DNA from: Verrucomicrobiota bacterium
GTDB lineage: Bacteria > Verrucomicrobiota > Verrucomicrobiia > JABWAM01
Direction of reading: 5' to 3'
DNA length: 64,000 nucleotides
Assembly (NCBI GenBank): GCA_023269615.1
Contig: JAHFSY010000008.1
Location: 68,052 to 132,051 of the forward strand
Shown here one piece after another: positions 31,229 to 62,103 of the stretch (positions within the stretch are counted from its first letter, which is position 1; each line of letters begins with the position of its first letter). The notes under the pieces are model-generated. The model was not told the origin of the DNA, searched no databases, and saw nothing but the letters and a program-made list of their open reading frames with translations. Both the position numbers and the translations under genes were made by a program.

Positions 31229-31342
31229 GCCACGGATGGAACAGGGATGAAACACGGATTTCGTTCCGCCACGGCGGGAGTGCGACCCATTGATGAGAAC
31301 AAGGGATTCCGTATCCGTGTTTCATCCGTGTCAATCCGTGGC
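31229..31342. repeat. MITE-like element with inverted terminal copies of GCCACGGATGGAACAGGGATGAAACACGGAT
   Basis: Terminal copies at 31229-31259 (+) and 31311-31342 (inverted) flank a 51-bp spacer that contains CCGCCACGGCGG. Confidence 0.55.
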
Positions 31343-36181: not shown

Positions 36182-37473
36182 TGTTTCCCCTCCTTGTCCA
36201 CCCAACCCAACTCCCGGATCTTTCGCTCCATCAGCGGCATCATCACATCCGCCATCCGACGGTGCCCCTCGTCGGTCAAATGCAGGTTGTCGTAAAACAG
36301 GGAGGAATCCAGCGCACCGAAAAGGTTCTCGAAATCTGACGTCCGCTGCTTCGTCCAAGCCACCTCCTGCGCCACCACCGTCTTATATTCGGATTCCTTC
36401 ATCGCAGTCTTCAGCAGCAACGGATTGACGGGACAAAGATAAACAAGCGACTGCGCCCCGCCTCTCGCTTTCACGTCCGCAAGCAACCGCTCGAGACAAA
36501 TGTGGTCCGTGGAACCGGTCTCGATCCGAAATGGATGCTCGCGACGGAATCTTTCGAAGCGCGCCTTGTCCCACAATTCCGGCCTCCACGTCTCGGAACG
36601 CGATTTGCGCGTCAGCCATTCCGCCCATACATCCGGCATCCATGAAGCCTGACGAAACCGGTCCCGTGAAACCAGCGTCCCGCCCGCATCCGTGCCGCCG
36701 AAAAGAAACATGTTCATCCGCTCGCGATAGCGGATCATCGGAATCCAGCGCTCCGCCACGCGCGACAATTGCTCCTCGTTCTCCCCTCGCCATTTCATCC
36801 ATCCGGACTGCGTCTGCTCATTTAAAGGTAGGGCGCGACCGCCGGGCGCGCCGCTGCGCAACGGACGGCCCGGCGGTCCGTCCCTACCTCGAACGGATGA
36901 TTCCCCGGACACGCTCGCGCATTTCTCCAACCACGACGTCTCGGCAAGCGGCCCATCCGTCCCATGGGCCCATTCATCCGGGCGAATCTGCAAAATCACC
37001 AGCGCACCAGACGGCAGATCAAGCTGGCGCAACAACGCCAGCTTTTCCGGCGCATTGGCCCCGGCCACGGAAAAATTGTCCACCGCGATGTCGTCCGACG
37101 GAAACCGTTCCCGCAGTTTCTTCTCAAGCAGCGCGCAAAATGTTTTGGAAGCCGGCGTGCGCCCGCCAAAACTCACGGAATCGCCGATCCACACGATGTG
37201 ATGCCCCCTGTCCAGACGCCTCCAGGCGCGAAACGCATTCCAGCTTCGTTCATCCGAAATCCCAAAGGCACGGTCCATGGTACGAAGATGCGGATTCAAC
37301 CGCGAAAAAAAATCATCGCCACAAAGCGCCAGCCAGGCATTGAGCAGGACGACAAACAGAAGGGCCCACAACCAGACGGCACGGCGCAAAAAGGGCGCGG
37401 CGCGCCATCGCGCCTCGGCAGGCCGCGCCACCGCAAAATCAGTTTCGGGAAGAGGCTGGCTCATGGTTTCCAT
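36178..37473 (-). CDS. SGNH-hydrolase-type partner of the MBOAT (AlgJ/DltD/PatB-like), carrying an in-frame repeat insertion
   Basis: N-terminal TM anchor, IVWIGDSVSFGG block I, and a C-terminal DNLHLTDEGH block. Residues 194-214 are encoded by the palindromic repeat 36828..36915. Confidence 0.6.
   Translation of the reverse strand: METMSQPLPETDFAVARPAEARWRAAPFLRRAVWLWALLFVVLLNAWLALCGDDFFSRLNPHLRTMDRAFGISDERSWNAFRAWRRLDRGHHIVWIGDSVSFGGRTPASKTFCALLEKKLRERFPSDDIAVDNFSVAGANAPEKLALLRQLDLPSGALVILQIRPDEWAHGTDGPLAETSWLEKCASVSGESSVRGRDGPPGRPLRSGAPGGRALPLNEQTQSGWMKWRGENEEQLSRVAERWIPMIRYRERMNMFLFGGTDAGGTLVSRDRFRQASWMPDVWAEWLTRKSRSETWRPELWDKARFERFRREHPFRIETGSTDHICLERLLADVKARGGAQSLVYLCPVNPLLLKTAMKESEYKTVVAQEVAWTKQRTSDFENLFGALDSSLFYDNLHLTDEGHRRMADVMMPLMERKIRELGWVDKEGKQ
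36828..36915. repeat. GC-rich palindromic repeat, family GGTAGGG...CCCTACC, copy B (inside a CDS, in frame)
   Basis: GGTAGGGCGCGACCGCCGGGCGCGCCGCTGCGCAACGGACGGCCCGGCGGTCCGTCCCTACC plus a shared 3' flank. It matches 15332..15419. Confidence 0.7.
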
Positions 37474-37547: not shown

Positions 37548-38132
37548 CTACTTGCTGCCGGGCTTGATGGCCGGGGTGGACTTCAAATCTTCGGGGACCT
37601 GGTCGGCGGGGAATGTTTCCACCTGCATTTTCACCAATGCGTGAAACGGAACGCCGAAATCCACCGGTGTCGTCGAACGATCCACAATCACAGCCACCGC
37701 GCTTACGATTCCTCCATGCGCGCGCACGATCTCGATGGTTTCCTTCACCCGTCCGCCCTGCGTCACCACATCCTCCGCGACGAGAAAGCGCTCCCCTTTT
37801 CCAATCTGGAATCCGCGGCGCAGGACCAGTTTGCCCTCCTCCTTCTCGACAAAGATGTGGCGTTTGCCGAGGGAGCGCGCCACCTCCTGTCCCACAATGA
37901 TGCCGCCCAGCGCGGGTGAAATCACGGAATCCACCTTGGAAGCGTCCACGCGTTTGGCGAGTGCCTCGCACAACCTCGCGGCGACGGTGGCGTGTTGCAG
38001 GACAATGGCGCACTGGAAGAACTGGCGGCTGTGCAGGCCGGAGCGCAGGACGAAATGGCCGTCGAGCAAGGCGCCGGCCCGGCGGAATTCCTGCAGGACA
38101 TCCTCGGCCTTCACTTCACTTCCTCGTACCAC
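37548..38132 (-). CDS. pyrE: orotate phosphoribosyltransferase
   Basis: LLDGHFVLRSGLHS N-terminal motif and PRPP-binding loop (VAEDVVTQGG). Confidence 0.8.
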   Translation of the reverse strand: MVRGSEVKAEDVLQEFRRAGALLDGHFVLRSGLHSRQFFQCAIVLQHATVAARLCEALAKRVDASKVDSVISPALGGIIVGQEVARSLGKRHIFVEKEEGKLVLRRGFQIGKGERFLVAEDVVTQGGRVKETIEIVRAHGGIVSAVAVIVDRSTTPVDFGVPFHALVKMQVETFPADQVPEDLKSTPAIKPGSK

Positions 38133-38314
38133 GCCATCTGGATGGATTCCAGGCGGGCTTCGTTCGACGCATTGGGATCACCGCCAAAATCCGCAAGCTC
38201 GAGGATCATTTTGTGAAGCGTCGGAAAACTGAGCTTCAACGGATCCTGGTCGGGGAACTTGTCCATCAACGCAAACGCAACATCCTCGGCATCATTCCAA
38301 TCAAGCTTGTTCAT
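38111..38314 (-). CDS. IscX/YfhJ-like small acidic protein
   Basis: 67 aa. FPDQDPLKL and FGGDPNASNE segments are collinear with IscX (YPDLDP...FDDDPQASNE). It overlaps pyrE by 22 bp. Confidence 0.55.
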   Translation of the reverse strand: MNKLDWNDAEDVAFALMDKFPDQDPLKLSFPTLHKMILELADFGGDPNASNEARLESIQMAWYEEVK

Positions 38315-38338
38315 GGGGAAATGAGAATAAGAATTTTA

Positions 38339-38368
38339 GCCACAGATGCACACGGATGAAACACGGAT
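38339..38368. repeat. solo copy of the CACGGATGAAACACGGAT motif (GCCACAGATGCACACGGATGAAACACGGAT)
   Basis: It lies 25-54 nt upstream of the iscX-like start codon, in the same orientation as the other copies. Confidence 0.55.
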
Positions 38369-38404
38369 ATTTTTTTATTCCGCGCTCCACGTTCCGCGTT
38401 TCCA

Positions 38405-39535
38405 TCATCCCGCTTCGGATGCCGCCTTGATCAACTCCTCCTCCGTCCATGGCTGGCCCTTGGGGGTACGGACATTGGGCAGCGCGGACATGCGCTTGAT
38501 GAGGTCGTCCTTCACCACGCACTTCTGGTATGCCTCCATCGGTTCCACCATTCCCTTGGACACATAATCGAGGAGCGAATCGTTGAGCGAACACATGCCC
38601 TCCTTTCGCCCGGTCTGGATCAGCATCGGGATCTGGTGAATCTTGCCCTCGCGGATGTTGGCGCCAAGGGCATGGCTGCCCATCAGAATCTCCAGGGCGG
38701 CCACGCGGCCTCCACCCTTCTTCTTGCAAAGCGTCTGGGCGATGACACCCTTCAAACCCTCGGCAAGGCCCGAACGCACCTGCTGCTGTTGCTCGGTCGG
38801 AAACTGGTTGATCAAACGGTCCACGGTCTGCGCCGCCGTGGTCGTGTGCAGCGTTCCAAACACAAGGTGGCCCGTCTCCGCCGTCTCGAGGGCGATCATG
38901 ATCGTCTCCAGGTCGCGCATTTCACCGACGAGCACGATGTCGGGGTCCTCGCGCAACGCGGCGCGCAGCGCGCGCTTGAAACTGCCGGTGTGCTCGTGCA
39001 CCTCGCGTTGGTTGACGAGGCACTTCTTGTTGGGATGCACAAACTCGATCGGGTCCTCGATCGTGAGGATGTGGTCCTCTCGGCTGTCATTGATGAAATC
39101 AATCATCGCCGCCAGCGTGGTGGATTTTCCGCTGCCCGTGGGGCCCGTCACAAGGACCAATCCCTTGGTAAGGAAACAAAGTTTCTTGATGGGTTCCGGC
39201 AGGTGCAGATCGGCAAAGGTCAGGATTTTTGATGGAATCAGGCGGAAGACGGCGCCGATGCCCTTGCGGTCGGCAAAAATATTGCAGCGATAACGAGCCA
39301 CGCCTTCGAGCGAATAGGCGAAATCGGTGTCCTTGCATTCCTCCCATTCCTGGCGGTTGCGCTCGGGAAGGATCTCGTAGATGAGGGACTTGACGATGTC
39401 GGTGGTGAAAAGCTGGTCGCTCACAGCCGTCATGGTCCCCGAAATGCGGAACATCGGAAAATGCTCGCTGGAAAGGTGAAAGTCGGAGGCCTTTTGTTCA
39501 ACCATCGCGCGAAAGTAATCATCGAGTGCAGCCAT
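38405..39535 (-). CDS. pilT: type IV pilus retraction ATPase, PilT/PilU family (paralog 1)
   Basis: PilT N-terminal domain (ASDFHL), Walker A GPTGSGKSTT, Asp box, Walker B and His box. Start chosen at MAALDDYF. Confidence 0.85.
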   Translation of the reverse strand: MAALDDYFRAMVEQKASDFHLSSEHFPMFRISGTMTAVSDQLFTTDIVKSLIYEILPERNRQEWEECKDTDFAYSLEGVARYRCNIFADRKGIGAVFRLIPSKILTFADLHLPEPIKKLCFLTKGLVLVTGPTGSGKSTTLAAMIDFINDSREDHILTIEDPIEFVHPNKKCLVNQREVHEHTGSFKRALRAALREDPDIVLVGEMRDLETIMIALETAETGHLVFGTLHTTTAAQTVDRLINQFPTEQQQQVRSGLAEGLKGVIAQTLCKKKGGGRVAALEILMGSHALGANIREGKIHQIPMLIQTGRKEGMCSLNDSLLDYVSKGMVEPMEAYQKCVVKDDLIKRMSALPNVRTPKGQPWTEEELIKAASEAG

Positions 39536-39587
39536 GAAATCAAAAATTACCAGACCACCCCGATTTGTCACCCCAAAACTGGTGTGG

Positions 39588-39793
39588 AAGCACGGATGCG
39601 GAGCCCTGGGTCCAGTTTCTCCGCAGATTAACGCAGGATCACGCAGATTTCTGAACGGCATTCAACCGTGCCATTTTCAAGCGTCACCTCGGTGGCGGTT
39701 GAAAATGACACGGTTGGGATCAAGGGCAGGCTTTGCGACTTTGCGACTTTGCGCGAAACCTTCTGAAAATCTGCGTCCATCTGCGAAATCTGC
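39588..39793. repeat. ~200-bp nested imperfect palindrome with GACTTTGCG direct repeats (MITE-like)
   Basis: Outer arms CTCCGCAGATT...CGCAGATTTC and GAAAATCTGCG...ATCTGCGGAG; inner arms CCGTGCCATTTTCAA and TTGAAAATGACACGG; three copies of GACTTTGCG; then CTTTGCGCGAAAC. Confidence 0.55.
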
Positions 39794-39826
39794 GGAGAAC
39801 CCGGGACCAAGGGCTCCGGTCCACAC

Positions 39827-40273
39827 TTACTTCGCAGCAGTGTGCTTTGCGATTTCCTCGACGTAGCGGTCGTTGGATTGCCGCAGATGATCGAGCACGG
39901 TCTTCAACAGCTGGATCGTGACGTACGCGGGCTCCTCGTTCAGGGCCCGCAACAGGACCGTGCTGGGGATTTTCGCAATGTGGACAAAGGAGGCCGCCAC
40001 CGCCGACGCGCTGCGCGGCTTGTCATCCAAAATGCCCATTTCGCCAAAATATTCCCCCTCGTTCACCGTGGCGATCGTCACGTCCTTGCCATCCTTGACG
40101 CTCTTGACCAAATCCACTTTTCCCTCGATCAGCAGGAAGACCTGGTCGGAAGGATCGCCCTCCTTGAACAGGATCGTCTTCTCATCGCAAAAAAAATCCG
40201 ACGCGTACTCGGCCAGCGACTTGGCGCGCGCCTCGCTGAAATAAGTGAAGAAGCGATGGGAGAGCAGGTTCAT
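39827..40273 (-). CDS. stand-alone cyclic-nucleotide-binding domain protein (no DNA-binding domain)
   Basis: cNMP-binding beta-roll signature (GEYFGEMGILDDKPRSASAVA). 148 aa. Confidence 0.75.
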   Translation of the reverse strand: MNLLSHRFFTYFSEARAKSLAEYASDFFCDEKTILFKEGDPSDQVFLLIEGKVDLVKSVKDGKDVTIATVNEGEYFGEMGILDDKPRSASAVAASFVHIAKIPSTVLLRALNEEPAYVTIQLLKTVLDHLRQSNDRYVEEIAKHTAAK

Positions 40274-40365
40274 GGGATTGGGGGCGTTGGATGAAGGAAC
40301 CCTAGATCATCCCACGGAAAGTTTCAAAGAAAAAGGCCTCCATCGAATACCGCACCTTCATCTTT

Positions 40366-41496
40366 TCATTTCCCCTCGGCCGAGGCCTTGACCAGCTCAT
40401 CCTCCGTCCATGCCTTTCCACCAGGCCCCCGCACATTGGGCAGATCGCCCATGCGCTTGATCAGCTCATCTTTCGCCACGGCTCGGCGGTAGGCCTCGGT
40501 GGGCTCGATGACCCCCTTGGAAACATAATCCAGCAGCGCGTCGTTCAGCGAACACATGCCTTCTTTTCGCCCGGTCTGGATCAGCATGGGAATCTGCTGG
40601 ATCTTGCCTTCGCGGATGTACGCGCTGAGCGCCGCGCTGCTGAGGAGAACCTCCATGGCGGCCACACGGGTGCCGTCTTTCGTCTTGCACAGGGTCTGGG
40701 AAATCACACCCCTTAATCCCTCAGCCAGCGCAACGCGAACCTGAGATTGCTGGTCGGAGGGGAACTGGTTGATCAGTCGGTCAATCGTGCCGGGCGCCGT
40801 CGTGGTGTGCAGCGTCCCGAATACCAGGTGCCCCGTCTCCGCGGTCTCAATCGCAATCATCACGGTCTCCAGGTCGCGCATCTCACCGATCAGCACGACA
40901 TCCGGATCCTCTCGCAGCGCCGCCCGCAGCGCGCGTTTGAAGCCGTCGGTGTGAATGTGCACCTGACGCTGGTTGACAAGGCACTTTTTGTGGGGATGAA
41001 CGTATTCGATCGGATCCTCGATCGTGATGATGTGATCGCTGCGGTTTTGATTGATGAAATCAATCAGCGTCGCAAGCGTGGTGGTTTTGCCGCACCCGCT
41101 CGGCCCCGTGGCCAGCACAAGCCCCTTCGTGAGAAAGCAAAGTTTCTTGATGCACTCGGGCAGGCGCAGCTCCTCAAAGGTAAGCACACGCGATGGAATC
41201 AGGCGGAAATTTGCCCCGATCCCATCCTTCGTCTGCGATACATTGCAGCGATAACGCCCCACATCGGGAATGGCATATGCAAAATCCGTGTCATGCATCT
41301 CCTCCCATTCGAGGCGATTGCGCTCCGGCATGATCTCGTAAATAAGCTGCTGGGCCATCTCGGCCGTCACAATTTCATCGCTGACCTTCGTGATCACCCC
41401 ATAAATGCGGAACATGGGATAATGCCCGCTGACCAGGTGAAAGTCAGACGCCGTCTGGTCCACCATCGCGCGAAAATAATCGTCAAGTGCAGCCAC
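40366..41496 (-). CDS. pilT: PilT/PilU-family ATPase (paralog 2)
   Basis: Collinear with paralog 1 (MAALDDYFRAMVDQTASDFHL...GPSGCGKTTT...). Confidence 0.85.
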   Translation of the reverse strand: MAALDDYFRAMVDQTASDFHLVSGHYPMFRIYGVITKVSDEIVTAEMAQQLIYEIMPERNRLEWEEMHDTDFAYAIPDVGRYRCNVSQTKDGIGANFRLIPSRVLTFEELRLPECIKKLCFLTKGLVLATGPSGCGKTTTLATLIDFINQNRSDHIITIEDPIEYVHPHKKCLVNQRQVHIHTDGFKRALRAALREDPDVVLIGEMRDLETVMIAIETAETGHLVFGTLHTTTAPGTIDRLINQFPSDQQSQVRVALAEGLRGVISQTLCKTKDGTRVAAMEVLLSSAALSAYIREGKIQQIPMLIQTGRKEGMCSLNDALLDYVSKGVIEPTEAYRRAVAKDELIKRMGDLPNVRGPGGKAWTEDELVKASAEGK

Positions 41497-41660
41497 GGGT
41501 GAGATCAGCTACAAGCCATAAGCTTTAAGCTGTAAGTTTCTGAATTCGGATTTGTTCTCTGCATGGTTAAAATCATTCGAAGGGCAAGTCATTGATCTGG
41601 AATAATCATATTTTCATAAAAGCTTATGGCTTAAGACGTATAGCTTACAGCTCTTTCCCC

Positions 41661-42788
41661 TCACTCCTCGGCCGCCGCCTTGATGAGGGCGTCCTCGGTC
41701 CATGGCTGCCCCTTGTGATCGCGGATGTTTGGAAGGGCCGCGATGCGCTTGATGATGTCATCCTTCACCACGGCTTTCTGGTACGCCTCGGGGGCTTCCA
41801 CGATACCCTTCGAAACGTAATCAATGAGCGAATCGTTCAGCATGCACATGCCCTCCTTGCGACCGCTCTGCATGAGCATCGGGATCTGGTGAATCTTGCC
41901 CTCGCGGATGTTCGCGCCCAGCGCGTGGCTGCCCATCAGGATCTCCAGCGCCGCCACGCGCCCGCCCCCCTTCTTCTTGCACAAGGTCTGCGCCACCACG
42001 CCCTTCAACCCCTCCGCCAGGCTCGCCCGGATCTGTGGCTGCTGCGGCGCGGGGAACTGGTTGATCAACCGGTCCACCGTGCTCGGCGCGGTGGACGTGT
42101 GCAGCGTTCCAAACACCAGGCTCCCCGTCTCCGCCGTTTCCAGGGCGATCATGATCGTCTCCAGGTCGCGCATCTCACCGACCAGCACAATGTCCGGATC
42201 CTCGCGCAACGCCGCCCGCAACGCGCTCTTGAAGCTCTTCGTATTCACGTGAACCTCCCGCTGATCCACCAGGCACTTCTTGTGCGGATGCACAAACTCG
42301 ATCGGATCCTCGATCGTGATGATGTGATCGGTCCTCGTATTATTGATGAAGTCAATCATCGCCGCCAGCGTGGTGGACTTGCCGCTGCCCGTCGGCCCGG
42401 TCACAAGCACCAGCCCCTTCGTGAGAAAACAAAGCTTCTTGATCGCCTCGGGAAGATTCAACTGCTCGAAGGTCAGGATCTTCGATGGAATCAGGCGAAA
42501 GACTCCGCCAATCCCGTACTGGTCCGCAAAGACGTTGCACCGATACCGCCCCACTCCCGTCACCTCATAGGCAAAATCCGTGTCATGCGATGTCTCCCAC
42601 TCGACCCGGTTGCGCTCGGGCAGGATTTCGTAAATCAGGCTGCGCACATCCTCCTCCGAAAATGCCTGGTCGCTCACCGGCGTCATGGTGCCGGAAATTC
42701 GGAAATTCGGAAAGGTGCCGCTGGTCAGGTGAAAGTCCGAAGCCTTCTGATCCACCATCGCTCTGAAATAGTCGTCGATCGCCGCCAT
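41661..42788 (-). CDS. pilT: PilT/PilU-family ATPase (paralog 3)
   Basis: MAAIDDYFRAMVDQKASDFHL...GPTGSGKSTT...; full length. Confidence 0.85.
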   Translation of the reverse strand: MAAIDDYFRAMVDQKASDFHLTSGTFPNFRISGTMTPVSDQAFSEEDVRSLIYEILPERNRVEWETSHDTDFAYEVTGVGRYRCNVFADQYGIGGVFRLIPSKILTFEQLNLPEAIKKLCFLTKGLVLVTGPTGSGKSTTLAAMIDFINNTRTDHIITIEDPIEFVHPHKKCLVDQREVHVNTKSFKSALRAALREDPDIVLVGEMRDLETIMIALETAETGSLVFGTLHTSTAPSTVDRLINQFPAPQQPQIRASLAEGLKGVVAQTLCKKKGGGRVAALEILMGSHALGANIREGKIHQIPMLMQSGRKEGMCMLNDSLIDYVSKGIVEAPEAYQKAVVKDDIIKRIAALPNIRDHKGQPWTEDALIKAAAEE

Positions 42789-42941
42789 GCGACAAAAGCT
42801 AAATTACACTTCAAATGAAGTCAGCCAAAAACTTCACTTTCCAGCCGGTCGGCGACCCGTGATGCAGGCATTTTTTGACAGGATTTACAGGACGAACAGG
42901 ATTTTCGGGGCGGCAATGATTGTGGCAGGATCCACGGGATT

Positions 42942-42995
42942 GCTTCGCGCACCGGATATCGGGACGCTGGCGTCCCGATATCCGGTGCGCGAAGC
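42942..42995. repeat. perfect 54-bp palindrome (25-bp arms, 2-nt centre)
   Basis: GCTTCGCGCACCGGATATCGGGACGC-TG-GCGTCCCGATATCCGGTGCGCGAAGC. It lies between the thioredoxin-like gene and pilT paralog 3. Confidence 0.7.
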
Positions 42996-43065
42996 TGGGT
43001 TGGTCTAAAATCCAGTGAATTCTGTAAATTCTGTCAAAAAAAAATCAGGAGTCCGTAGAGACAGA

Positions 43066-43824
43066 CTACTTTGCGGGGGTCTTCTTCGAGCCGGCCAGCG
43101 TGTCGGTCGTGTCCTTCAGGACCTTGTTCGGGCCCACATAGTTGCCTCCCACATAGCTGTCGGAAACCACCTTCCCCTCCGCATCCAGCAATACCAGGCA
43201 GGGGATTCCGGGGCCGCACAAGGGCTGCAGCGGAGATCCCTTGATTTCCGAAAATTGAACGGCGCTCCAGGGCATGCTCGTCTCGTTCATGTACTCCGTC
43301 TGTTTGGCTTCCGACTCGTCGCTGCTCACGAAGATCAGGTCCAGGTTCGGCGATTTGTTCGCGTTATAAAACTCCACCAGCTTGGGAGTGAAGGCGCGGC
43401 ACGGGGGACACCAGTGCGCCGAGAAATAAACCAGCACGTACTGGCTGCTGGCGATGTGCGAGAGACGGTCCGCGGACAGCTTCTGGCCACCCGCCGCAAC
43501 CAGCGAGTCCCGAACGTCTTTGTAAAGCTTCGACGCCCCAAATCCCTTCACCGCCTTGCCGCCGCCCTTGCCGACATCCGACCCGAGGCACAACGCGGAA
43601 ATGACCTTGCCATCCGGAGCCTTGAATTTCGCAATGACCATTCCATCCGAAGCCACCGTGTCACCCACCTCCAGGTCACTCCCCGCCTTGAACTCCCCGA
43701 TCTGCTTGGAGGAATTACTGATGTCGAACGCGGGAACGGCTTGCTCGCAATGAAACGTCCCGGCGCGGGCAATTCCAATCCCGAGGCAAAGCAACGCCAG
43801 GATCACCCCATGTAGCTGCTTCAT
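43066..43824 (-). CDS. secreted thioredoxin-fold protein (TlpA/ResA-like thiol:disulfide oxidoreductase)
   Basis: Signal peptide and a WCPPC CxxC motif in a thioredoxin context. Confidence 0.7.
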   Translation of the reverse strand: MKQLHGVILALLCLGIGIARAGTFHCEQAVPAFDISNSSKQIGEFKAGSDLEVGDTVASDGMVIAKFKAPDGKVISALCLGSDVGKGGGKAVKGFGASKLYKDVRDSLVAAGGQKLSADRLSHIASSQYVLVYFSAHWCPPCRAFTPKLVEFYNANKSPNLDLIFVSSDESEAKQTEYMNETSMPWSAVQFSEIKGSPLQPLCGPGIPCLVLLDAEGKVVSDSYVGGNYVGPNKVLKDTTDTLAGSKKTPAK

Positions 43825-43829
43825 GGCGG

Positions 43830-44267
43830 CTACTTCTTGAGCTTCTCCAACTCGGCCACAAACGCCGAAGGCCCGCCCTGCATGTAACCAAGCTGGCCGA
43901 TTTGTTTTCCCTCGGAATCCAGCACGATCACCGTCGGAAAACCCTCGACCTTGTATTCCTGCATCAGCTTTTCATTCTGCTTCGTGAGGAGCTGGGTGAG
44001 CTTTTTCTTCTGCGGAAAGTCGAGTTTCAGGAGAACAAGATTCTTGTCTGCGTATTCCTTGAAATCCTTCTGGTCAAAAACCTCCTTGTCGAGCTTGATG
44101 CACCATCCGCACCAGTCCGACCCCGTGAAATCCATCACGACCATCTTCTTGTCAGCCTTCGCCTTTTCAAGCGCCTTGGCGTGGTCCGTCATCCATCCAT
44201 CATCCCCCGCCATGAGAGAGGAACTAAACACCGTCAAAGCAAGCAGAGTCATAAACCGATTTTTCAT
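43830..44267 (-). CDS. secreted thioredoxin-like protein
   Basis: Signal peptide MKNRFMTLLALTVFSSSLMA and a WCGWC motif. The ORF extends to 44336. Confidence 0.65.
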   Translation of the reverse strand: MKNRFMTLLALTVFSSSLMAGDDGWMTDHAKALEKAKADKKMVVMDFTGSDWCGWCIKLDKEVFDQKDFKEYADKNLVLLKLDFPQKKKLTQLLTKQNEKLMQEYKVEGFPTVIVLDSEGKQIGQLGYMQGGPSAFVAELEKLKK

Positions 44268-44360
44268 AAAGGCCTTTCGATTGAATGTTGTATCGGGGTA
44301 GCCTAAACGAGAAAGCAGTCCTGTCAAGCATCCCAAGGCTTACGCATCTAAGAACGGGAA

Positions 44361-44390
44361 GCCACGGATGAACACGGATGAAACACAGAT
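44361..44390. repeat. solo copy of the CACGGATGAAACACGGAT motif (GCCACGGATGAACACGGATGAAACACAGAT)
   Basis: It lies upstream of the thioredoxin-like gene and downstream of the giant gene. Confidence 0.5.
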
Positions 44391-44427: not shown

Positions 44428-47400
44428 TCATTCCTTGGCCCCCGCTTGTTTCAGGGCATCTGCAATATCCGCGCGCTTGATCCGGATGGCGATGGAAAGC
44501 GGCGTTTCACCTCTTTGACTCCGGGCGCGGGCGTCCGCGCCGGCCTTGAGCAGTAACCGTACGATCAGCAGGTCTCCCTGTTCCACCGCAGCCATCAACG
44601 GGGTTGTCCCATCGGAATCAGATACGTTCGGTTTAGCCCCCTTCTCCAGAAGCAGCATAAGGAGCTCAGGATGTTTGCGCGTGATGGCGCTCAGGAGCAT
44701 CCGCCCTCCCAAACCTTTTACGTCCGCCCCCGTGTTGATCGCCGCTTCCGCCTTCTCATAACTTCCCTCCGTCACGGCGGCATCCAGGTCCGTGGATGCC
44801 TTAAACAACACATCCCCGCTTTGGGCACCTGCCTTCTTGAGAATCTCCGCGACTTCAGGGTGCCTCTGCTGTCTGGCCACATCCAGGGCTGTGCAAGGCG
44901 AAAAAATCGCGCCATTGTCATAGCAGGCGAGAAAGTCGGGGTTGGCTCCCTTGGAAAGCAGCAGTTTCACGTTTTCCGTTGCTCCGAAGGCGGCCGCATT
45001 GAAGATCGCGGTGCGTCCCCCATCGCCGCGCGAGTTCACATCGCCGCCCTGCTCAATCAAGTATTTCAACCCTTCGGATTTCTGTTGCTTGACAATTTCC
45101 TGCATGGGCGGCCCCGTCTTCGCGCCCTTGGAGATCAGGAATTTCGCAATTTCCCATTGTTGATTCAATACCGCAATGCAAAGCGGCGTCAGTCCTTCAA
45201 CCGTGCTTTCCGTCTCATTGTAAGCCATGGGCGCATCCAGTTGCGAACCACGGTCAATCAAAAACTTCGCCATCTCGAGATGTCCATTTTCCGTCACGGT
45301 ATGGAGCGCCGTGCAACTTTTGTTTGTCTTTGAATTCACGTTGGCGCCATGGGCAAGAAGCGCTTCCACCACTTCGGGATGGCAGCCATCGGCCGCAAAC
45401 ATCAGCGGCGTGCAGCCGATCCTGGACCTCGCATTTACATCCGCACCCTTTTCCAAGAGCAACTGAACCATCTCGAGGTGCCCCGCAGTTGAAGCGAAAA
45501 TGAGCGGCGTCCAATCATTCTCATTCCGCCCATCCACCTTCGCCCCCTTTACCAGCAACTCTCTGACCCCAGCCAGGTCCCCTTTCTGGGCGGCGGCAAG
45601 CAACGCCATGCCCAGATTTTCCGCAGTCACCTTCACCCCGGCCTTCTCCAACATTGTCATGATTTCCGTCTCGTTGTCCCTCTTGTTGTCCGGAGCCGTC
45701 CCTTGCGCGATGGAAAGGGCGTTCTTCCCATCCTTGTTGCTGACATTCACATCGGCACCGGCCTCGATCAGCACGCGAGAGATCGAGAGATTGGAGGATT
45801 CCACGCCGGCGAGAAACGGGGTCATTCCCTCGGCGTCAACCGCATTGAGGTTTGCGCCCTTGGCCAGCAGGAACTCAACGCTTTCCAGGTTGCCATGCCT
45901 TGCGGCAAGGATCAGAGACGTCGAGTTCTTCCCGTCGTGAGCGTCCACCTGGGCGCCACGGTCGAATGACGTTTTCAACTTCGGCACATTACCCGTTTCT
46001 GCGGCGTCCAACAGGGCCTCATCCGCAGTCTCGATAGGCGGGACGGATTTCGACAGGCCCGATTGGTGCCACCACTGCTCCCACAGGGCATAATGATCAC
46101 CAAACGCCTGGCCCGTCAGTTTCTCCAGGGCGTCAATGAGTTCATTCTGCACCGCCGGCTTGTTATACACGATAGAACCGTTGAGAAACGTGCTGGAGGC
46201 ATCGTCCGGCCTCCAAAACACCTCCAATAAATACGGAATGGCCGCCGGATCACCGATCCGGCCCATGGCCCCGGACACTTTCTCCTCGGAAAAAGCGTCT
46301 CGGGTCAGCGGTTTTGCGACAATGGGAATCAGCCTCTTCTCCGGGAAATACTTTCCGATATTGTCAACGACTTCTCGTGCGCGGGGGTTTTTCGCCGCGT
46401 CCCGCATGGTTTGATCCAGATAGGCCAGGGCATCCGAATCACCCGCCCTGCACAAGACCGCCAGCAGGATCAAATCCGCATCGTAACCGTCCTTGTAACT
46501 GCGGGACGATTTGACGATGGAAATGATTTCCGGGTCATAGTCGCCCGCCATGAGCAAATCCAATGCCGCCTCGTTGCAAGGCGGGGAATTGCGATCATTC
46601 AAGATGGCCCGAAGGCGGGGCTTCGCTTCCACGCCGCCCAGCAAAATCACCGCGCGAACGGCCTCCTGACGCACTCCAACATCCGGATCGCCGAGAAGCA
46701 CGGCCACCTGATCGAGATGATCCCTGCTTTTCAGCTTTCCAAGTTGTCTCACGGCAATACCCCTCACACGGGGTTCCGCATCCGACAAGTACCCGAGAAA
46801 GTCGGGAACGAATGATTTCAAGCAGATCTCGCCGAGGACATCCAGCGCCTCGGCACGCGCGTCCCCACTCTCGGAGCGGCTCGCCGCAATCTTGATCAGA
46901 TAGGGAACAGCCCTCTCCCTGCCTTTGACGTCCGGGTAGCGAAGGCCCCCAAGCAGAAACCGGCGTCTTTTCTTATCACCTCCCGCGTCTTGAGTAATCG
47001 CAATGAATTCATCCACATGGCCTAGACCTCCTTTCCCTCCGGAGGTTGTCACAAGCATACTTGCCTCAAATTTCTCCAGGGAAACCATGTGGGAAGGCGC
47101 GGCATGGTTGAAGCTGCGAAAATCCTCAATAGGAAGGGGCAGCACCTCGCGGGGAACGAATAAAATACACTTGTTTTGAGGGTCATATACCATGCTGGGA
47201 ATTTGCCCGTTGAAATCCGCTTCCATTTCGATGGAAGACAAGGATCTTCGGAGCACCGTCCCGTTGTCCCTCGACAACTCGAAGAGTTCGCCAAGGGAGT
47301 TGCCCACGTAAATCCTCCCCCCCAGAGCCACAGGCACGGCAATGGGTGTCCAATCCTCAAACTTCCACCGGACCTTGCCCGTGGCACGATCCAGGGCGTA

Positions 47401-50400
47401 GAGAACTCCGTCCAACATGCTCGGAAAAAGAATCATGTCCCCATCGAACACGACACATGCGGCCAGGACATCAAGGTCCGTGTGCGTTCGCATGATATCG
47501 TGCCGCTCCTTCAGGTAAGGACGCCCCGGGTGGGCATCATGGCTCCACAAGACCGTCTTGCCCGTTGAGTCCCTGTATGTCAGCACTCCGCTCTCCGACA
47601 CATCATACTGGGATGCACCCTCCTGTCTTTCCGGATCAGGGACTTTTGAGGTCACCGGCAACGGATTTCTCCCGATTGTCCCTTCCGCAGTGGCTGTCAT
47701 GGTCACGGGCACTCCAGCTTTGAAGTTCAATATCGCCAAACAACCCTGTCGAATCACATCTGCCTGGTCTCCCTTCACCGTCTGTTTCTCAACCGCTTTG
47801 AAGTATTCTTCAGCCTTTTCATCGTTGCCCGAGACCCGATGCATCATCCCCAACGCTTGAAGTGCTTGCATGCATTCCAGCGTGTTGGGATGTGCCTGCA
47901 CCACTTCCTCAAGCTGTTTTGCCATCTGTTCCTGTTGCGGATTCAGCTGGGCGGCCGCGCTTGTCTTGGAAGGTTTGCGCGGGACGGATTTGGAATTCAA
48001 CACCATCGAACAACTCTCGCGGATCTTGTCCGCCTTTTCCCCTTTCACCGCCTGTTTCACAACGGCCTGAAAGCATTCCGCGGACTTTTCAGCGTGCCCC
48101 ATCCTACGATGCATCCACGCCAGCTTTTCGAGCGCTTGCATGCATTCGAGCGTGTTGGGATGCGCTTGTGCCACCCCTTCAAGAAGTTTCATCACCTGTT
48201 CTTTTTCCGCGCTCGATTCGGCTTTCTCGGCAGCCATCATCACCACTTCAGGGTCGCTGGTGCCGATGGAGAGAAGTTCCTTCAAGGCCTTCCCCGCCTG
48301 GATCGGTTTCTGTTTTGAAATGTTTTTGCTTACCGCCTTCAACAGCTCGATCTTCCGGGGATTCGGTGATGTACCCATCAAACGGATGATGGCAGCATAA
48401 GAAGGGGTCAAGGTATCAATCACCGGCGCCCGGTTCCACGCTGGCGATGGAGGCGTGATGACCCATGGAAGGTTCAGATACACACGGAGCGCCGCCGCAC
48501 GATCTCCCAAGACTTCGTACAGCCTTCCGCACTCATAAGAGGGGGTTTTGACCCTGCCGAGCGTTGCCAGCGCGTCACTTGCCCTCCCCAACTCCTGCTG
48601 GGCCCGGGCTAGGTTGAACCTTGCGATGTCCGCATCGACTCCGCGCTTCGCACGATCCGCCAGGGCCCTCTTCCACAATTCCTCCTCCTCTGTGGTCCTC
48701 TTGAGTCTTCTCAAAATTCCACCCGCGGCTTCATAGTATGGCCATGGGTCATCCTTCGCTTCCGCAATCTTCATTCCCTTGTAAAAGCTCGACAACGCCT
48801 CTTCATCCTCCTCCTGCTTCAGGTACTCGGTGCCCATCTTGAAATGATAATCCGGAGTGTCCGGAGAAACGTACGCAGCGGTTTTCACCTCCTTCATCTT
48901 GTCAGCACCCCCGGTGTAAATTCTCGACTCGAGCCAGCTCATGAACGGATTTCGTGCGGCGTCATCCCCGGCGCGCGATGGTTTTCCCAAGGCGGAGGCC
49001 AGTTGTCGGCCCAGCGCGTCAAGATCATCCAGCTTGCCCTCGACATCCACCACGTTGAGCAGGGCCCCTTTCTCCACGTCAATCAGACGGGCCGAGATGG
49101 CGATTTTCCCCTCCTTGAGCCCGTAAAACCCGCTGACGATGGCGTTGGCCTTGAGCAACCCGCCCAGCTTCAACGCCGTCGCCTCGTCCGCAACCGCCTG
49201 AATCCCCTGCTCCTTGAGGACGGATTTGATTTTTTCCCGCTCCACCACCCTCATGGTTTTCCCGGATGACAACGCCGTGATCAGCACATCGTCAATCGCC
49301 CCATCAGACAACGATGCCCCCTCCAACGTCAGCGGATGAAATCCGGTGACCGCGATGGTCTGGACCGGCAACTGCTCCTCCCCGCGCTTCGCGGCGGAAT
49401 CTCCCCCCTCCACAGGAAAACGTTTTTTTATTTCATCCAGCAACATGGAAGCTGTTTTCTCCTCGTCCATGTTTTCCACTGGAACACTCACCAACCGTTC
49501 CCGCCTCGAATTTTTGAAATCATCCATCCAGACGTCCAGAACACGCGAGTAGCCCGCATTCCGTCCCCCGACGTGCAGGACCAGGTCTGCGGTCAACGCG
49601 TTCTTGAAACTCTTCACCTCGTCACCCTCCGCCTCGGAACCCAGCTGGGCCAGTTGCTTCTCATCGAACAGGGAGGATGCCGTGGTTCTTTCCACAAGTT
49701 CGAGTCCGGGAGTGTTACTGAGATATTGAAGAAACTTGGCGTGAGCTGAATTCACGCGTATATCCGCGCCAGCATCTGAGACCAGCGACACACGCAAGGG
49801 ACGCGCCGGGGTCGGCACCGCAATCACCGGGTAACCGCTGAACCCGGGAATCATCCTCACCCGCACGGGCAGGTTGTGCTCGTAGGCGCCCACGTCCGCA
49901 AGCCAACTCGTCGCGCGCGTCACGCCGGTCACTTCCAGTGTGTAAAAGTACGCGGTCCCGTTACGGACATCCTTGTCCACATACTCTGTCATGTTGGCCC
50001 GGGTTCGAAAAATCTCACGGTCCGGAGAAACCTGGAGCTTGTTGGCCCGTATCGTCGCATGACTCTGATCCGTGCGCCGGAGCACGAAGTAAGGACCCTC
50101 CGCCCAGTCTTTTTCATTCCATGGGAAGGAATCCCAACGCAACCGGACCTGTCCATCGTCCGCCCATGCGACCAATCCCGTCGGCAGCGGGTTCCTCACC
50201 GCAGAAACTGTCGCGGTCCGCATCTCCTTCTTGTCCGGGCCGCCCCAGTGGAAAACATAGTCGCAACGCTCGGAAAACCCAGGCCACTCGTAATAATTCT
50301 CATTCTGCCAGTCATTGCGGTCCAAAAATTTCCCGAAAATCCCTCGACGACCCTGGACCTGACTGTTGATTTCAAACGTCCAACCCTTGTGACCCAACGT

Positions 50401-51603
50401 GCCCAATACCCCGTAGATGCCTGAATCCTGGGGCGTTCCAGGAAAAGCGTCACGGGCGCGGATTTTGTCCGGGGATTCGTTGGCATTGGCCGAGGATTCC
50501 ACGAGGATGAACCCGCGTGATCTCCACGGGGGGTTGCTTGAACCCTTCGCTTCCGGCGCCGCAAAATCCACCCTCTGCTGGACGCGATTGCCCGCAATCA
50601 CCGTGCTAGCGCCTTCTTTCATGCTCCACGTGTCCTTGCGAATCAACACATCCAGGGCGACAACCAACATGGGCTCGCCACCAAGGGGAGAGGTCGCCTT
50701 GACCGGCACCTTGAAACTGCCGGCCCCAATGGGAAACCGGGCGAGTTCGTGAACGGGCTGCCACGATCCATTCTGCCAACACGCAAGATCCACAGTCAGC
50801 CTCGATTCGCTGAGCAGTCCGTCGGATTTGAAGGCAATCGCATCCCAGTCCAGGTGGGGATGACCTTCGCCATCCAGCTTCATGCGTGCGCGCGGCACCG
50901 GCATCGGTATGGTCGAACAGCAACCGCTCTCCCCAACCGGCCCCTGCCCCGCATGAAGCAGGCGAACCTTGTAGAAATACTTCGTCCCCGCCTCGACATG
51001 CGGATCCACCATGGAAAACTCAAACACATGTTTCGCCTTCTCGTCGGATTTCTGGACAGGAGCCGGGCTCACGACCTTGGGAGCGATCGGCTTCAAGCCC
51101 CCCAGCTCCACTTTCCCCAACGAGCCCGCTTCCTTGTATTCCCCATCCGCTCGGATCGAGCGCATCAACTGGACCCCAGTCACTTTCGACCCAATGCCGG
51201 ACTCCGACGTTCCACCCCCCATTTCCAATCGCACACTGACACGGACTGCGGCCGCCGGCGGCACAGGAGTGGGTGGGGCTGCGGCATGACGAGACCGCTC
51301 GAAAGCCTCCATCATCTCACTTCCATCATTCCCCCCTCGTCCCAGAAATGTGGGGCTTCCCGTGGTGAAAGGGCACGGGGCGGCCCATACCTTCCAGTCC
51401 AACAACTCCAGATCCTTCGCATCGACAACACCCACCGGCTGAGCTTCCGTTGCCCGCTCCACGGACTGCGCCGCCCGATCACGCAACTCCGACGAAAATG
51501 TCGGTTGGTCGTTCAAAGTCCGGTACGTGCTCCAACCCGCCAAACCGATCCCGATCACCGCAAGCACACCGATGATGATTCTTGTTGAACGGTTCAATTT
51601 CAT
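44428..51603 (-). CDS. giant (2391 aa) multi-domain envelope protein: N-terminal TM, CsgG-like domain, beta-propeller, HEAT-like and ~15 ankyrin repeats
   Basis: N-terminal TM anchor. A CsgG-like segment (IAVTGF...VVEREKIKSVLKEQ) lies at ~aa 740-850. A PQQ/WD-like segment follows (GKVRWKFEDW...IYVGNS). HEAT/PBS repeats follow (VRGIAVRQLGKL...VRQEAVRAV). The C-terminal ~600 aa consist of ankyrin repeats (G-TPL--A---GH-E-V--LL--GA). Confidence 0.8.
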   Translation of the reverse strand: MKLNRSTRIIIGVLAVIGIGLAGWSTYRTLNDQPTFSSELRDRAAQSVERATEAQPVGVVDAKDLELLDWKVWAAPCPFTTGSPTFLGRGGNDGSEMMEAFERSRHAAAPPTPVPPAAAVRVSVRLEMGGGTSESGIGSKVTGVQLMRSIRADGEYKEAGSLGKVELGGLKPIAPKVVSPAPVQKSDEKAKHVFEFSMVDPHVEAGTKYFYKVRLLHAGQGPVGESGCCSTIPMPVPRARMKLDGEGHPHLDWDAIAFKSDGLLSESRLTVDLACWQNGSWQPVHELARFPIGAGSFKVPVKATSPLGGEPMLVVALDVLIRKDTWSMKEGASTVIAGNRVQQRVDFAAPEAKGSSNPPWRSRGFILVESSANANESPDKIRARDAFPGTPQDSGIYGVLGTLGHKGWTFEINSQVQGRRGIFGKFLDRNDWQNENYYEWPGFSERCDYVFHWGGPDKKEMRTATVSAVRNPLPTGLVAWADDGQVRLRWDSFPWNEKDWAEGPYFVLRRTDQSHATIRANKLQVSPDREIFRTRANMTEYVDKDVRNGTAYFYTLEVTGVTRATSWLADVGAYEHNLPVRVRMIPGFSGYPVIAVPTPARPLRVSLVSDAGADIRVNSAHAKFLQYLSNTPGLELVERTTASSLFDEKQLAQLGSEAEGDEVKSFKNALTADLVLHVGGRNAGYSRVLDVWMDDFKNSRRERLVSVPVENMDEEKTASMLLDEIKKRFPVEGGDSAAKRGEEQLPVQTIAVTGFHPLTLEGASLSDGAIDDVLITALSSGKTMRVVEREKIKSVLKEQGIQAVADEATALKLGGLLKANAIVSGFYGLKEGKIAISARLIDVEKGALLNVVDVEGKLDDLDALGRQLASALGKPSRAGDDAARNPFMSWLESRIYTGGADKMKEVKTAAYVSPDTPDYHFKMGTEYLKQEEDEEALSSFYKGMKIAEAKDDPWPYYEAAGGILRRLKRTTEEEELWKRALADRAKRGVDADIARFNLARAQQELGRASDALATLGRVKTPSYECGRLYEVLGDRAAALRVYLNLPWVITPPSPAWNRAPVIDTLTPSYAAIIRLMGTSPNPRKIELLKAVSKNISKQKPIQAGKALKELLSIGTSDPEVVMMAAEKAESSAEKEQVMKLLEGVAQAHPNTLECMQALEKLAWMHRRMGHAEKSAECFQAVVKQAVKGEKADKIRESCSMVLNSKSVPRKPSKTSAAAQLNPQQEQMAKQLEEVVQAHPNTLECMQALQALGMMHRVSGNDEKAEEYFKAVEKQTVKGDQADVIRQGCLAILNFKAGVPVTMTATAEGTIGRNPLPVTSKVPDPERQEGASQYDVSESGVLTYRDSTGKTVLWSHDAHPGRPYLKERHDIMRTHTDLDVLAACVVFDGDMILFPSMLDGVLYALDRATGKVRWKFEDWTPIAVPVALGGRIYVGNSLGELFELSRDNGTVLRRSLSSIEMEADFNGQIPSMVYDPQNKCILFVPREVLPLPIEDFRSFNHAAPSHMVSLEKFEASMLVTTSGGKGGLGHVDEFIAITQDAGGDKKRRRFLLGGLRYPDVKGRERAVPYLIKIAASRSESGDARAEALDVLGEICLKSFVPDFLGYLSDAEPRVRGIAVRQLGKLKSRDHLDQVAVLLGDPDVGVRQEAVRAVILLGGVEAKPRLRAILNDRNSPPCNEAALDLLMAGDYDPEIISIVKSSRSYKDGYDADLILLAVLCRAGDSDALAYLDQTMRDAAKNPRAREVVDNIGKYFPEKRLIPIVAKPLTRDAFSEEKVSGAMGRIGDPAAIPYLLEVFWRPDDASSTFLNGSIVYNKPAVQNELIDALEKLTGQAFGDHYALWEQWWHQSGLSKSVPPIETADEALLDAAETGNVPKLKTSFDRGAQVDAHDGKNSTSLILAARHGNLESVEFLLAKGANLNAVDAEGMTPFLAGVESSNLSISRVLIEAGADVNVSNKDGKNALSIAQGTAPDNKRDNETEIMTMLEKAGVKVTAENLGMALLAAAQKGDLAGVRELLVKGAKVDGRNENDWTPLIFASTAGHLEMVQLLLEKGADVNARSRIGCTPLMFAADGCHPEVVEALLAHGANVNSKTNKSCTALHTVTENGHLEMAKFLIDRGSQLDAPMAYNETESTVEGLTPLCIAVLNQQWEIAKFLISKGAKTGPPMQEIVKQQKSEGLKYLIEQGGDVNSRGDGGRTAIFNAAAFGATENVKLLLSKGANPDFLACYDNGAIFSPCTALDVARQQRHPEVAEILKKAGAQSGDVLFKASTDLDAAVTEGSYEKAEAAINTGADVKGLGGRMLLSAITRKHPELLMLLLEKGAKPNVSDSDGTTPLMAAVEQGDLLIVRLLLKAGADARARSQRGETPLSIAIRIKRADIADALKQAGAKE

Positions 51604-57507: not shown

Positions 57508-57538
57508 CTGGATGAATTTGTCGTCGCAAATCCACCCG

Positions 57539-58471: not shown

Positions 58472-58523
58472 GGGATTACCTTGATGGATTTGATTTTTGT
58501 AAATGGGAACGCAGAAATTTTTT

Positions 58524-58636
58524 GCCACAGATGGACACGGATGAAACACGGACTTGTTGGCGCTTGCCACGGCAAGCGCCGTCATGCTGAATCAGCTTGC
58601 TGAGCATCATCCGTGTAAATCTGTGTTGATCTGTGG
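58524..58636. repeat. MITE-like element with inverted terminal copies of the CACGGATGAAACACGGA motif
   Basis: GCCACAGATGGACACGGATGAAACACGGA at 58524-58552 and its inverse ATCCGTGTAAATCTGTGTTGATCTGTGGC at 58608-58636. They flank the hairpin GGCGCTTGCCACGGCAAGCGCC. Confidence 0.55.
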
Positions 58637-58659
58637 CTGTTTTCATTCTTTTGCGGAAA

Positions 58660-61549: not shown

Positions 61550-61566
61550 TTGCCTCCGTTTTCGCC

Positions 61567-61643
61567 CTTGTAGGAGCCGCTGTCAGCGGCGACCGGGGAA
61601 CAGGCCGACCCCGCGGATCGCCGCTGACAGCGGCTCCTACAAG
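61567..61643. repeat. REP-like palindromic repeat (CTTGTAGGAGCCGCTGTCAGCGGCGACCGGGG ... inverse)
   Basis: Near-perfect 32-bp inverted arms with a 10-nt loop. Same family as 28895..28979. Confidence 0.7.
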
Positions 61644-61654
61644 ACCAAAATACA

Positions 61655-61921: not shown

Positions 61922-61929
61922 GGATTTCC

Positions 61930-62085
61930 GGATGTCTCTCGCAAAGACACCAAGTCGCAAAGTTTCCGCATCGGACGGTCTCCCATGGTCCCAAGCGTGC
62001 CATTCCGATTGAAAGTCGCTTTCAATCGGAATGGCACGCTTTCATGCCTTTTTCAGACTTTGCGACTTGGCGTCTTTGCGCGAAA
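61930..62085. repeat. ~155-bp nested perfect/imperfect palindrome (MITE-like), related to 39588..39793
   Basis: Outer arms GTCTCTCGCAAAGACACCAAGTCGCAAAGT and ACTTTGCGACTTGGCGTCTTTGCGCGAAAC. Inner perfect arms AGCGTGCCATTCCGATTGAAAG and CTTTCAATCGGAATGGCACGCT. Confidence 0.6.
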
Positions 62086-62103
62086 CATTCCGAATAATCT
62101 GTC

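Follow-up and report, generated by a model that had tools for sequence, protein, structure and literature searches.

We analysed a stretch of 64,000 nucleotides of DNA from an uncultured verrucomicrobium (contig JAHFSY010000008.1, positions 68,052 to 132,051; hereafter the window), and we focused on four genes that lie head-to-tail on the minus strand between positions 38405 and 42788. These positions coincide with the outer ends of the genes, and they are the same as those proposed by a first-pass annotation made from the sequence without database searches. In the direction of transcription the genes are pilT-A (41661-42788, 375 aa, ATG start), pilT-B (40366-41496, 376 aa, GTG start), a gene for a 148-aa stand-alone cyclic-nucleotide-binding (CNB) protein (39827-40273) and pilT-C (38405-39535, 376 aa). 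Both the list of open reading frames (ORFs) and the sequence bear out the initial claim of three full-length PilT copies in tandem on one strand. The amino-acid identity is 82% between PilT-A and PilT-C, 73% between PilT-B and PilT-C and 70% between PilT-A and PilT-B. The locus is a lineage-specific expansion of PilT-type ATPases, the motors of type IV pilus retraction.

Regarding the start sites, the N-terminus MAALDDYF, which had been put forward as common to the paralogues, is present in all three copies and also in the pilT-C orthologue of another locus (L091). Therefore we place the start of pilT-C at 39535, although its mechanically predicted ORF extends to 39661 (418 aa), and the same conserved N-terminus fixes the start of pilT-B. 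Public gene calls set the starts of pilT-B and pilT-C 10 codons late (366 aa, at MVDQ/MVEQ), and the longest-ORF rule puts that of pilT-C 42 codons too early (418 aa).

The assignment of the three ATPases to PilT, as first proposed, is upheld by profile scores, by a tree and by comparison with known structures. Against the TIGR01420 model, which has a curated cut-off of 319.1 bits, PilT-A, PilT-B and PilT-C scored 442.4, 423.6 and 445.8 bits, covering positions 2-342 (A and B) and 2-339 (C) of the 343 in the model, and all three matched PF00437. The scores to the PilT (3JVU) and PilU (9N32) structures of Pseudomonas aeruginosa were 365 and 257 bits for PilT-A, 341 and 246 for PilT-B, and 375 and 231 for PilT-C. 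In a neighbour-joining tree (100 bootstraps) of the PilT-family genes from 18 loci, the three copies fell within a PilT clade specific to Verrucomicrobia with a bootstrap of 100. This clade groups with the first genes, that is the PilTs, of pilT-pilU pairs, and the PilU-type second genes branch apart. Thus, the tree and the structure scores rule out that any copy is a PilU. The array is not a pilT-pilU operon either, its second and third genes being PilT-type. The possibility that the paralogues group with unrelated secretion ATPases was also checked, and they group with canonical PilTs instead; the scores to the models of GspE, PilB, DotB, VirB11 and TraJ were far under the respective cut-offs. 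An anti-phage defence system was considered as well and rejected, as PADLOC yielded generic P-loop and CNB matches only.

The C-terminal end of these proteins sets the verrucomicrobial clade apart. The signature motif of PilT in this region, which we take to be AIRNLIRE, reads ALGANIRE in PilT-A and PilT-C and ALSAYIRE in PilT-B, so that A, I, R and E are retained and the changes fall in the middle. In our alignment, the canonical PilTs carry A(V/I)RNLIRE and the PilU-type genes LISDLIRK or LMADLIFK; the verrucomicrobial clade thus has its own version of the PilT signature, A-L-x-A-x-I-R-E. Furthermore, the whole clade shows a conserved C-terminal extension of around 30 residues, KDDLIKRM.ALPN.R.PKGQPWTEEELIKA, that the canonical PilTs do not have. 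It corresponds to about the last 35 codons of pilT-A, pilT-B and pilT-C (38405-38510 in pilT-C, for example), and it is also found in seven other verrucomicrobial loci (L006-L012). Since the C-terminal tail of PilU mediates the contact between PilT and PilU in other bacteria (10.1101/2025.10.30.685630), the verrucomicrobial tail could by analogy be a docking element. An AlphaFold model of PilT-C had a low confidence (predicted local distance difference test, pLDDT, of 65.6) and was set aside.

In order to know how unusual the array is, we used 80 PilT loci from species-representative genomes, fetched with pilT-B as the query; the species of the window lies outside that set. Pairs of pilT and pilU were found in many of these loci, and triples of the type pilT-pilU-pilU-like in 5, which are gammaproteobacterial. 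In these tandems the genes that come second and third belong to the PilU type, and a CNB neighbour is absent from all of them. Adjacent PilT-type genes were present in only one of the 80 loci (L005, GCA_016198745.1). Altogether, runs of two or more adjacent PilT-type genes were seen only in the lineage of the window, namely in the window itself, in another sample of the same species (L004), in L001/L005 and in L085/L086, the last of which were fetched separately from the set. The seven verrucomicrobial loci L006-L012 have one gene of the PilT clade within 8 kb. The earlier statement that triple PilT arrays are uncommon therefore holds. Outside this lineage, no pilT gene with a CNB neighbour was found among the 80 genome loci.

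The fourth gene encodes a protein that had been described as consisting of a CNB domain alone. This is correct: PF00027 is the only Pfam match of its 148 residues (78.3 bits, cut-off 27.5; E = 4e-22), and the gene sits among the paralogues, between pilT-B and pilT-C. The phosphate-binding cassette, FGEMGILDDKPRSAS, is complete when judged by the pattern F-G-E...R-[ST]-A, and in a comparison with 22 relatives G77, E78 and R87 were invariant and S88 nearly so. The AlphaFold2 model (pLDDT 90.6) has a CNB beta-barrel followed by a long C-terminal helix (residues 116-147), and its best Foldseek matches were the cAMP-bound CRP of Mycobacterium tuberculosis and GlxR, with template modelling scores of 0.80-0.82. 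No helix-turn-helix domain was matched in Pfam, the NCBIfam CRP match spans only positions 29-135 of CRP, and the chain ends at residue 148, after the C-helix. Therefore the public label 'Crp/Fnr family transcriptional regulator' on the orthologue P0004 overstates what the protein is, since there is no DNA-binding domain. On its sequence and its model, the protein is predicted to be a cyclic nucleotide monophosphate (cNMP) sensor module, made of a barrel and a signalling helix, without an output domain.

This type of CNB protein is rare when linked to PilT, with 4 sequences at 72-100% identity among 5.8 billion proteins, and around 8 further stand-alone relatives were found at 44-56% identity. 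In the exhaustive profile search, many of the best full-length matches were soluble kinases of around 365 aa (360-380 aa), and those that were scanned showed the architecture CNB-HisKA-HATPase_c. The window protein is 50% identical over residues 1-138, including the string MNLL.HRFF, to the N-terminus of one of these CNB-histidine kinases (P0207), and its C-terminal helix corresponds to the helix that leads into the kinase dimerisation domain. The HisKA and HATPase_c domains are present in the relatives P0207, P0219 and P0233 and absent from the window protein. The pattern suggests that the CNB protein is a detached sensor module derived from soluble CNB-histidine kinases.

Furthermore, the CNB gene may have its own promoter. 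In the spacer between pilT-B and the CNB gene there is a promoter-like element, TTGAAA-N17-TAGGGT (40299-40327, minus strand), around 25 nt upstream of the CNB start codon. TTGAAA, together with the T, A and last T of the second hexamer, does not vary between L001, L002 and L091, whose spacers have diverged in other respects. The pattern TTGAAA-N16-18-TANNNT has one match in the window and 35 of 100 shuffled sequences give at least one, so the support comes from conservation, from which we infer a promoter function. A simple consensus scan of 38000-43300 found no sigma-70 promoter and no excess of terminators.

All four genes are maintained by purifying selection. The ratio of nonsynonymous to synonymous substitution rates (dN/dS) against orthologues was 0.05-0.09 for the PilTs (0.06-0.09 for pilT-B) and 0.09-0.14 for the CNB gene, the latter against orthologues at 86% and 72% identity. 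Purifying selection counts out the possibility that the CNB ORF is an artefact. The paralogues have changed to a different extent: at sites conserved in at least 90% of 114 other verrucomicrobial PilTs, we counted 2 replacements in PilT-C, 7 in the PilT-A lineage and 15 in the PilT-B lineage. Thus pilT-B is the fastest-evolving paralogue and pilT-C the most conservative copy.

Some of these replacements affect catalytic motifs. The ATPase core of the secretion superfamily comprises the Walker A Lys, an atypical Walker B with the catalytic Glu, an acidic Asp box and two His-box His residues (PMC5065972, PMC5424180). PilT-B and PilT-C carry all of them, PilT-B with an altered Walker A, and PilT-A is without the first His-box His. 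This residue, invariant elsewhere, is Ser in the PilT-A lineage (ETGSLVFGTLHT), where the second His is retained. In the PilT-B lineage Walker A is GPSGCGK(T/S)T (GPSGCGKTT in the window copy) instead of the usual GPTGSGKST. Both the His-to-Ser change of the A type and the Walker A of the B type were confined to CNB-bearing genomes among the 120 best verrucomicrobial PilT matches listed. In PilB, the gamma-phosphate is contacted by the second His-box His; the first is packed against a threonine where the subunits meet (PMC5424180). Because the residue retained in PilT-A is the gamma-phosphate contact of PilB, PilT-A may by analogy still hydrolyse ATP, with its cooperativity altered.

The gene order in related genomes gives an idea of how the locus was built. 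In the window, two thioredoxin-like genes (43066-43824 and 43830-44336, minus strand, matching Pfam thioredoxin families) lie upstream of the A/B pair. Downstream of pilT-C there are an IscX-like gene (38111-38314, minus strand, 67 aa, PF04384) and a phosphoribosyltransferase gene (PRTase; 37548-38132, minus strand, PF00156). These genes served as synteny anchors. The order is thus thioredoxin-A-B-CNB-C-iscX-PRTase in the window, pilT-PRTase in L006 and L087, pilT-iscX-PRTase in L007, and thioredoxin-pilT-pilT-PRTase in L085/L086, which have no CNB gene. L001 shows pilT-pilT-CNB-epimerase, and both L091 and a 2243-nt contig of ERZ27296333 show (pilT-B)-CNB-pilT-C. In the neighbour-joining tree the first pilT of L001 and that of L085 cluster with pilT-A (bootstrap 92-100), the second pilT of L001 clusters with pilT-B (bootstrap 100), and the single pilT of L006 clusters, though weakly, with pilT-C. 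Two derived strings, QTKDGIG.NF and EYVHPHKKCLVNQRQVH, are common to pilT-B and the second pilT of L085. The synonymous distance (dS) between the paralogues is around 1.1, like the distance of the orthologues to L001. The data do not support the idea that pilT-C is a recent duplicate of pilT-A: C stands apart from A in the tree and the A-C dS is also around 1.1.

Since pilT-C occupies the pilT-iscX-PRTase position and keeps nearly all of the conserved residues, these data suggest that it is the ancestral conservative copy, the positional orthologue of the single pilT. They also suggest that pilT-A and pilT-B are older extra paralogues that were inserted upstream, and that the CNB gene arrived later, in the interval that separates pilT-B from pilT-C, within a single narrow sub-lineage of 4-5 populations.

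Several known systems resemble this array in part. In the pilT-pilU tandems of Pseudomonas aeruginosa, Vibrio cholerae and Acinetobacter, two hexameric ATPases, stacked under the platform protein, retract one pilus (PMC6762196, 10.1101/2025.10.30.685630). These tandems are likewise adjacent, same-strand genes of the PilT/PilU family; however, the window has three copies, all PilT-type, with the CNB gene among them. Several PilT-like ATPases in one genome are also found in Geobacter sulfurreducens (PilT1-4; PMC5065972), in Myxococcus xanthus (PilT and four more; PMC13584747) and in Neisseria (PilT, PilT2 and PilU; PMC10790696), and in these genomes one is the main motor and the others tune force, speed or conditions (PMC5065972, PMC13584747, PMC10790696). 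Nevertheless, the Geobacter paralogues are more divergent (43-52% identity, versus 70-82% in the window), the extra copies of M. xanthus lie outside the pil cluster, and no embedded nucleotide-sensor gene has been reported for the PilT sets of Geobacter, M. xanthus or Neisseria.

Regarding second messengers, cAMP acts on pili through the transcription factor Vfr/CRP. Direct control of pilus motors is on record for cyclic di-GMP (c-di-GMP), via MshE and FimX-PilB (PMC4624765, PMC5595344, PMC7096442). FimX is a precedent for a separate second-messenger receptor that can dock on a motor ATPase. However, the known direct control concerns c-di-GMP and extension ATPases, whereas the candidate in the window is a CNB domain without a DNA-binding domain beside retraction ATPases. 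The CRP/FNR regulators (M. tuberculosis CRP, GlxR, Vfr) and the stand-alone CNB domains in the PDB (3GYD, 2PQQ) share with the window protein the barrel, the cassette and the long C-helix; unlike these regulators, the window protein has no helix-turn-helix. As for the CNB-HisKA-HATPase_c kinases, their sensor module aligns with the whole 148-aa protein at up to 50% identity, but the window protein ends just before the phospho-acceptor domain and lacks the kinase core. In the library that we searched in full text, no description of a CNB-PilT pairing was found.

Taking the locus as a whole, we favour, tentatively and with slightly less than even confidence, a reading of these sequences in which pilT-C encodes the ancestral main motor, pilT-A and pilT-B encode specialised PilTs with an accessory role, and one of these is coupled to cAMP or cGMP by the CNB protein. 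PilT-C would power basal pilus retraction. PilT-A and PilT-B would form specialised or accessory hexamers, in a role held elsewhere by PilU or by alternative PilTs, and would either stack on PilT-C or be its competitors at the platform; retraction motors that stack or cooperate are on record (10.1101/2025.10.30.685630; PMC13584747). The CNB protein, which probably dimerises by way of the C-terminal helix, would bind cAMP or cGMP and, once loaded, would bind a flanking PilT, most likely PilT-B or PilT-A, switching the motor on or off. With such a gated motor, the strength or mode of retraction would follow the level of the cyclic nucleotide. Direct control of a PilT motor by a cNMP is a plausible proposal. 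Its more specific form, where the CNB protein is a direct cAMP/cGMP switch that docks on PilT-B or PilT-A, the copies with motif changes that would date from its arrival, and decides which hexamer engages the platform, is rather unlikely. If it were true, a monocyclic nucleotide, and not c-di-GMP, would for the first time be seen to control a retraction ATPase post-translationally.

The proposed link between the CNB protein and PilT draws on gene order and on the changed catalytic motifs of the flanking PilTs, and the conservation of the promoter-like element across three diverged lineages also speaks for it. The CNB gene directly follows pilT-B, with a spacer of 74-92 bp, in every population that has the P0001-P0004 type, and this position persists in 4-5 populations whose proteins are as little as 72% identical. 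Nevertheless, several points weigh against the coupling and against the order of events given above. The linkage between CNB and pilT effectively amounts to a single evolutionary event within one narrow lineage, and L001 has the CNB gene without a pilT-C nearby. The distant CNB relatives, those at 44-56% identity, lie in unrelated contexts: one adjoins an aldo-keto reductase gene (L003), one directly follows a hybrid histidine kinase with HATPase_c and receiver domains (L089), one is beside IF-2 (L090), and one is divergent from an operon with gspG and secretin genes (L088). The nearest multi-domain relatives of the CNB protein are histidine kinases and not partners of ATPases. No pilB, pilC or pilM-Q gene, no secretion gene and no cyclase gene is present in the 64-kb window. 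Furthermore, the base of the paralogue tree has bootstraps of 11-59, so the order of duplication is something that we infer. Among 80 metagenome loci fetched with the CNB family, none had a PilT or type II secretion system (T2SS) neighbour.

The histidine kinases make a two-component partner a real alternative, and it is the main one, although we consider it doubtful. According to this explanation the CNB protein does not act on PilT. It would use its signalling helix to pair with a histidine kinase or with a protein of the CRP/FNR type, and in this way tune a transcriptional or two-component pathway, maybe unrelated to pili; its position among the pilT genes would be a legacy of the site where the gene happened to land. 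The similarity to the N-terminus of P0207, the many kinases of the same architecture, the equivalence of helix 116-147 to the helix entering the dimerisation domain, the relative that follows a hybrid kinase in L089, the distant family members without a pilT neighbour and the promoter-like element of the CNB gene itself all agree with it. Against it, the position after pilT-B is conserved, with short spacers, the changes in the catalytic motifs of both upstream PilTs coincide with the presence of the CNB gene, and there is no histidine kinase within 13 kb of the CNB gene in the window.

The second alternative is that the three ATPases serve a different type IV filament apparatus, for example a pseudopilus like that of the T2SS, a pilus for DNA uptake or a variant particular to Verrucomicrobia, and that the CNB protein takes part in its control. 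The window has no type IVa pilus assembly genes, as noted above, and the C-terminal extension distinguishes the whole verrucomicrobial clade from canonical PilTs. In addition, a CNB paralogue 53% identical to the window protein (P0178; L088 6319-6762), found in the same two samples as the genome of the window, is divergent from an operon of gspG, minor pseudopilins, gspK, an L/M-like gene and a secretin gene (L088 1-6252). It links the CNB family to type IV filament genes a second time, in a single case. Nevertheless, we regard the explanation as unlikely: all three ATPases are much nearer to experimentally characterised PilTs than to other secretion ATPases, and they retain the A-L-x-A-x-I-R-E version of the PilT signature. 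Moreover, pilT genes are often unlinked from the pil assembly genes, and the T2SS adjacency is one case, on a contig that tetranucleotide composition, which does not separate close relatives, did not tie to the genome of the window. Finally, that the three pilT genes are redundant duplicates without division of labour and the CNB gene a neutral passenger is very improbable, because, although the three copies are 70-82% identical and agree in length and in the layout of their domains, the paralogues are old (dS similar to that between the orthologues and L001), all the genes are under strong purifying selection, orthologues of A and B persist in separate genomes, and each paralogue has its own replacements at otherwise conserved positions.

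Returning to the reading with a main motor, accessory PilTs and a CNB switch, its interest is that the timing and force of type IV pilus retraction decisions in bacteria are only partly understood. A bare cNMP sensor among three PilT-type motors is a concrete candidate for direct control of retraction by a cyclic nucleotide, and the locus is also a natural example of a PilT-only set of several motors, independent of PilU. As the case rests on uncultured Verrucomicrobia and on the gene order in one narrow lineage, it serves for now as a generator of hypotheses.

The spacers of the array contain palindromic elements. The first-pass annotation had pointed to an AT-richer stretch with nested inverted repeats at 41507-41652. 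This element exists, as an AT-rich palindromic insertion in the 164-bp spacer between pilT-A and pilT-B (41497-41660), with 36% GC versus 58% for the window. It has perfect 14-nt arms at 41513-41526 and 41619-41632, and the whole spacer has 38% GC and a fold of -39.5 kcal/mol (z = -2.8). However, it is the weakest of three spacer hairpins, and the two stronger ones had been missed. One is a nested element of around 220 nt (39599-39818, inverted repeats I3, I5, I13 and I15; fold -134.6 kcal/mol, z = -7.4) in the 291-bp spacer between the CNB gene and pilT-C (39536-39826). The other is a nested element upstream of pilT-A (42871-43041) whose inner arms are perfect 26-mers (42942-42967 and 42970-42995), and the region 42789-43065 has a fold of -113.6 kcal/mol (z = -8.6).

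In related genomes these spacers are shorter. Between A and B, L001 has 50 bp and L085 has 17 bp; between CNB and C, L091 has 45 bp and a second population has 66 bp, versus 291 bp in the window; and between thioredoxin and pilT-A, L085 has 83 bp versus 277 bp in the window. The relatives' spacers of 17-66 bp have no hairpins and similar palindromes lie elsewhere in the window; therefore we rejected the hairpins as regulators specific to this locus, and the repeat at 41507-41652, real as it is, is not a regulatory feature specific to the array. Because they are absent from the matching spacers of related genomes, the palindromes behave like insertions, and by this comparison they are to be taken as inserted elements of the miniature inverted-repeat transposable element (MITE) or repetitive extragenic palindromic (REP) kind, not as part of the pilT module, and none is a copy of another. 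Once inserted, they may break up or stabilise transcripts. A riboswitch or other known RNA in the spacers was also discarded, since Rfam gave only sub-threshold, microRNA-like hairpin noise.

A similarly nested palindrome was found at 61926-62094, and others at 59474-59581, 61560-61650 and 36826-36889, all in intergenic regions of the window. Some of the elements are nested in such a way that near-perfect GC-rich inner arms of 23-28 nt lie inside imperfect outer arms with motif repeats such as CGCAAAGTCGCAAAG. Another motif, ATCCGTGTnCATCTGTGGC, occurs 5 times with at most 3 mismatches, versus 0.02 expected, at 31324-31342, 38339-38357, 44361-44379, 58524-58542 and 58619-58637. These sites are in or near gene spacers, some of them as inverted pairs, and the motif may be a terminator-associated or REP-like repeat.

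The other neighbours in the window are enzymes of sugar modification and a cluster of giant proteins of the ankyrin, HEAT and CsgG-like kinds. The latter form a run of unusually large genes on the minus strand (44428-58585), which includes a protein of 2391 aa that combines a CsgG-like segment with HEAT repeats and many ankyrin repeats, two more ankyrin proteins (51600-52571 and 55864-57507), a 1099-aa protein without a Pfam match (52568-55867) and a CsgG-like protein (57539-58585). Together, the giant ankyrin proteins and their CsgG-like neighbours may constitute a module for the cell surface or for secretion. A single pilin-like gene lies in the window (5826-6740, minus strand), and it encodes a 304-aa protein with a prepilin-type N-terminal methylation motif. 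On the plus strand, at 16931-17827, there is a tyrosine recombinase of the phage-integrase family, similar to XerC/D, which adjoins a stretch of 62-64% GC at 17-20 kb.

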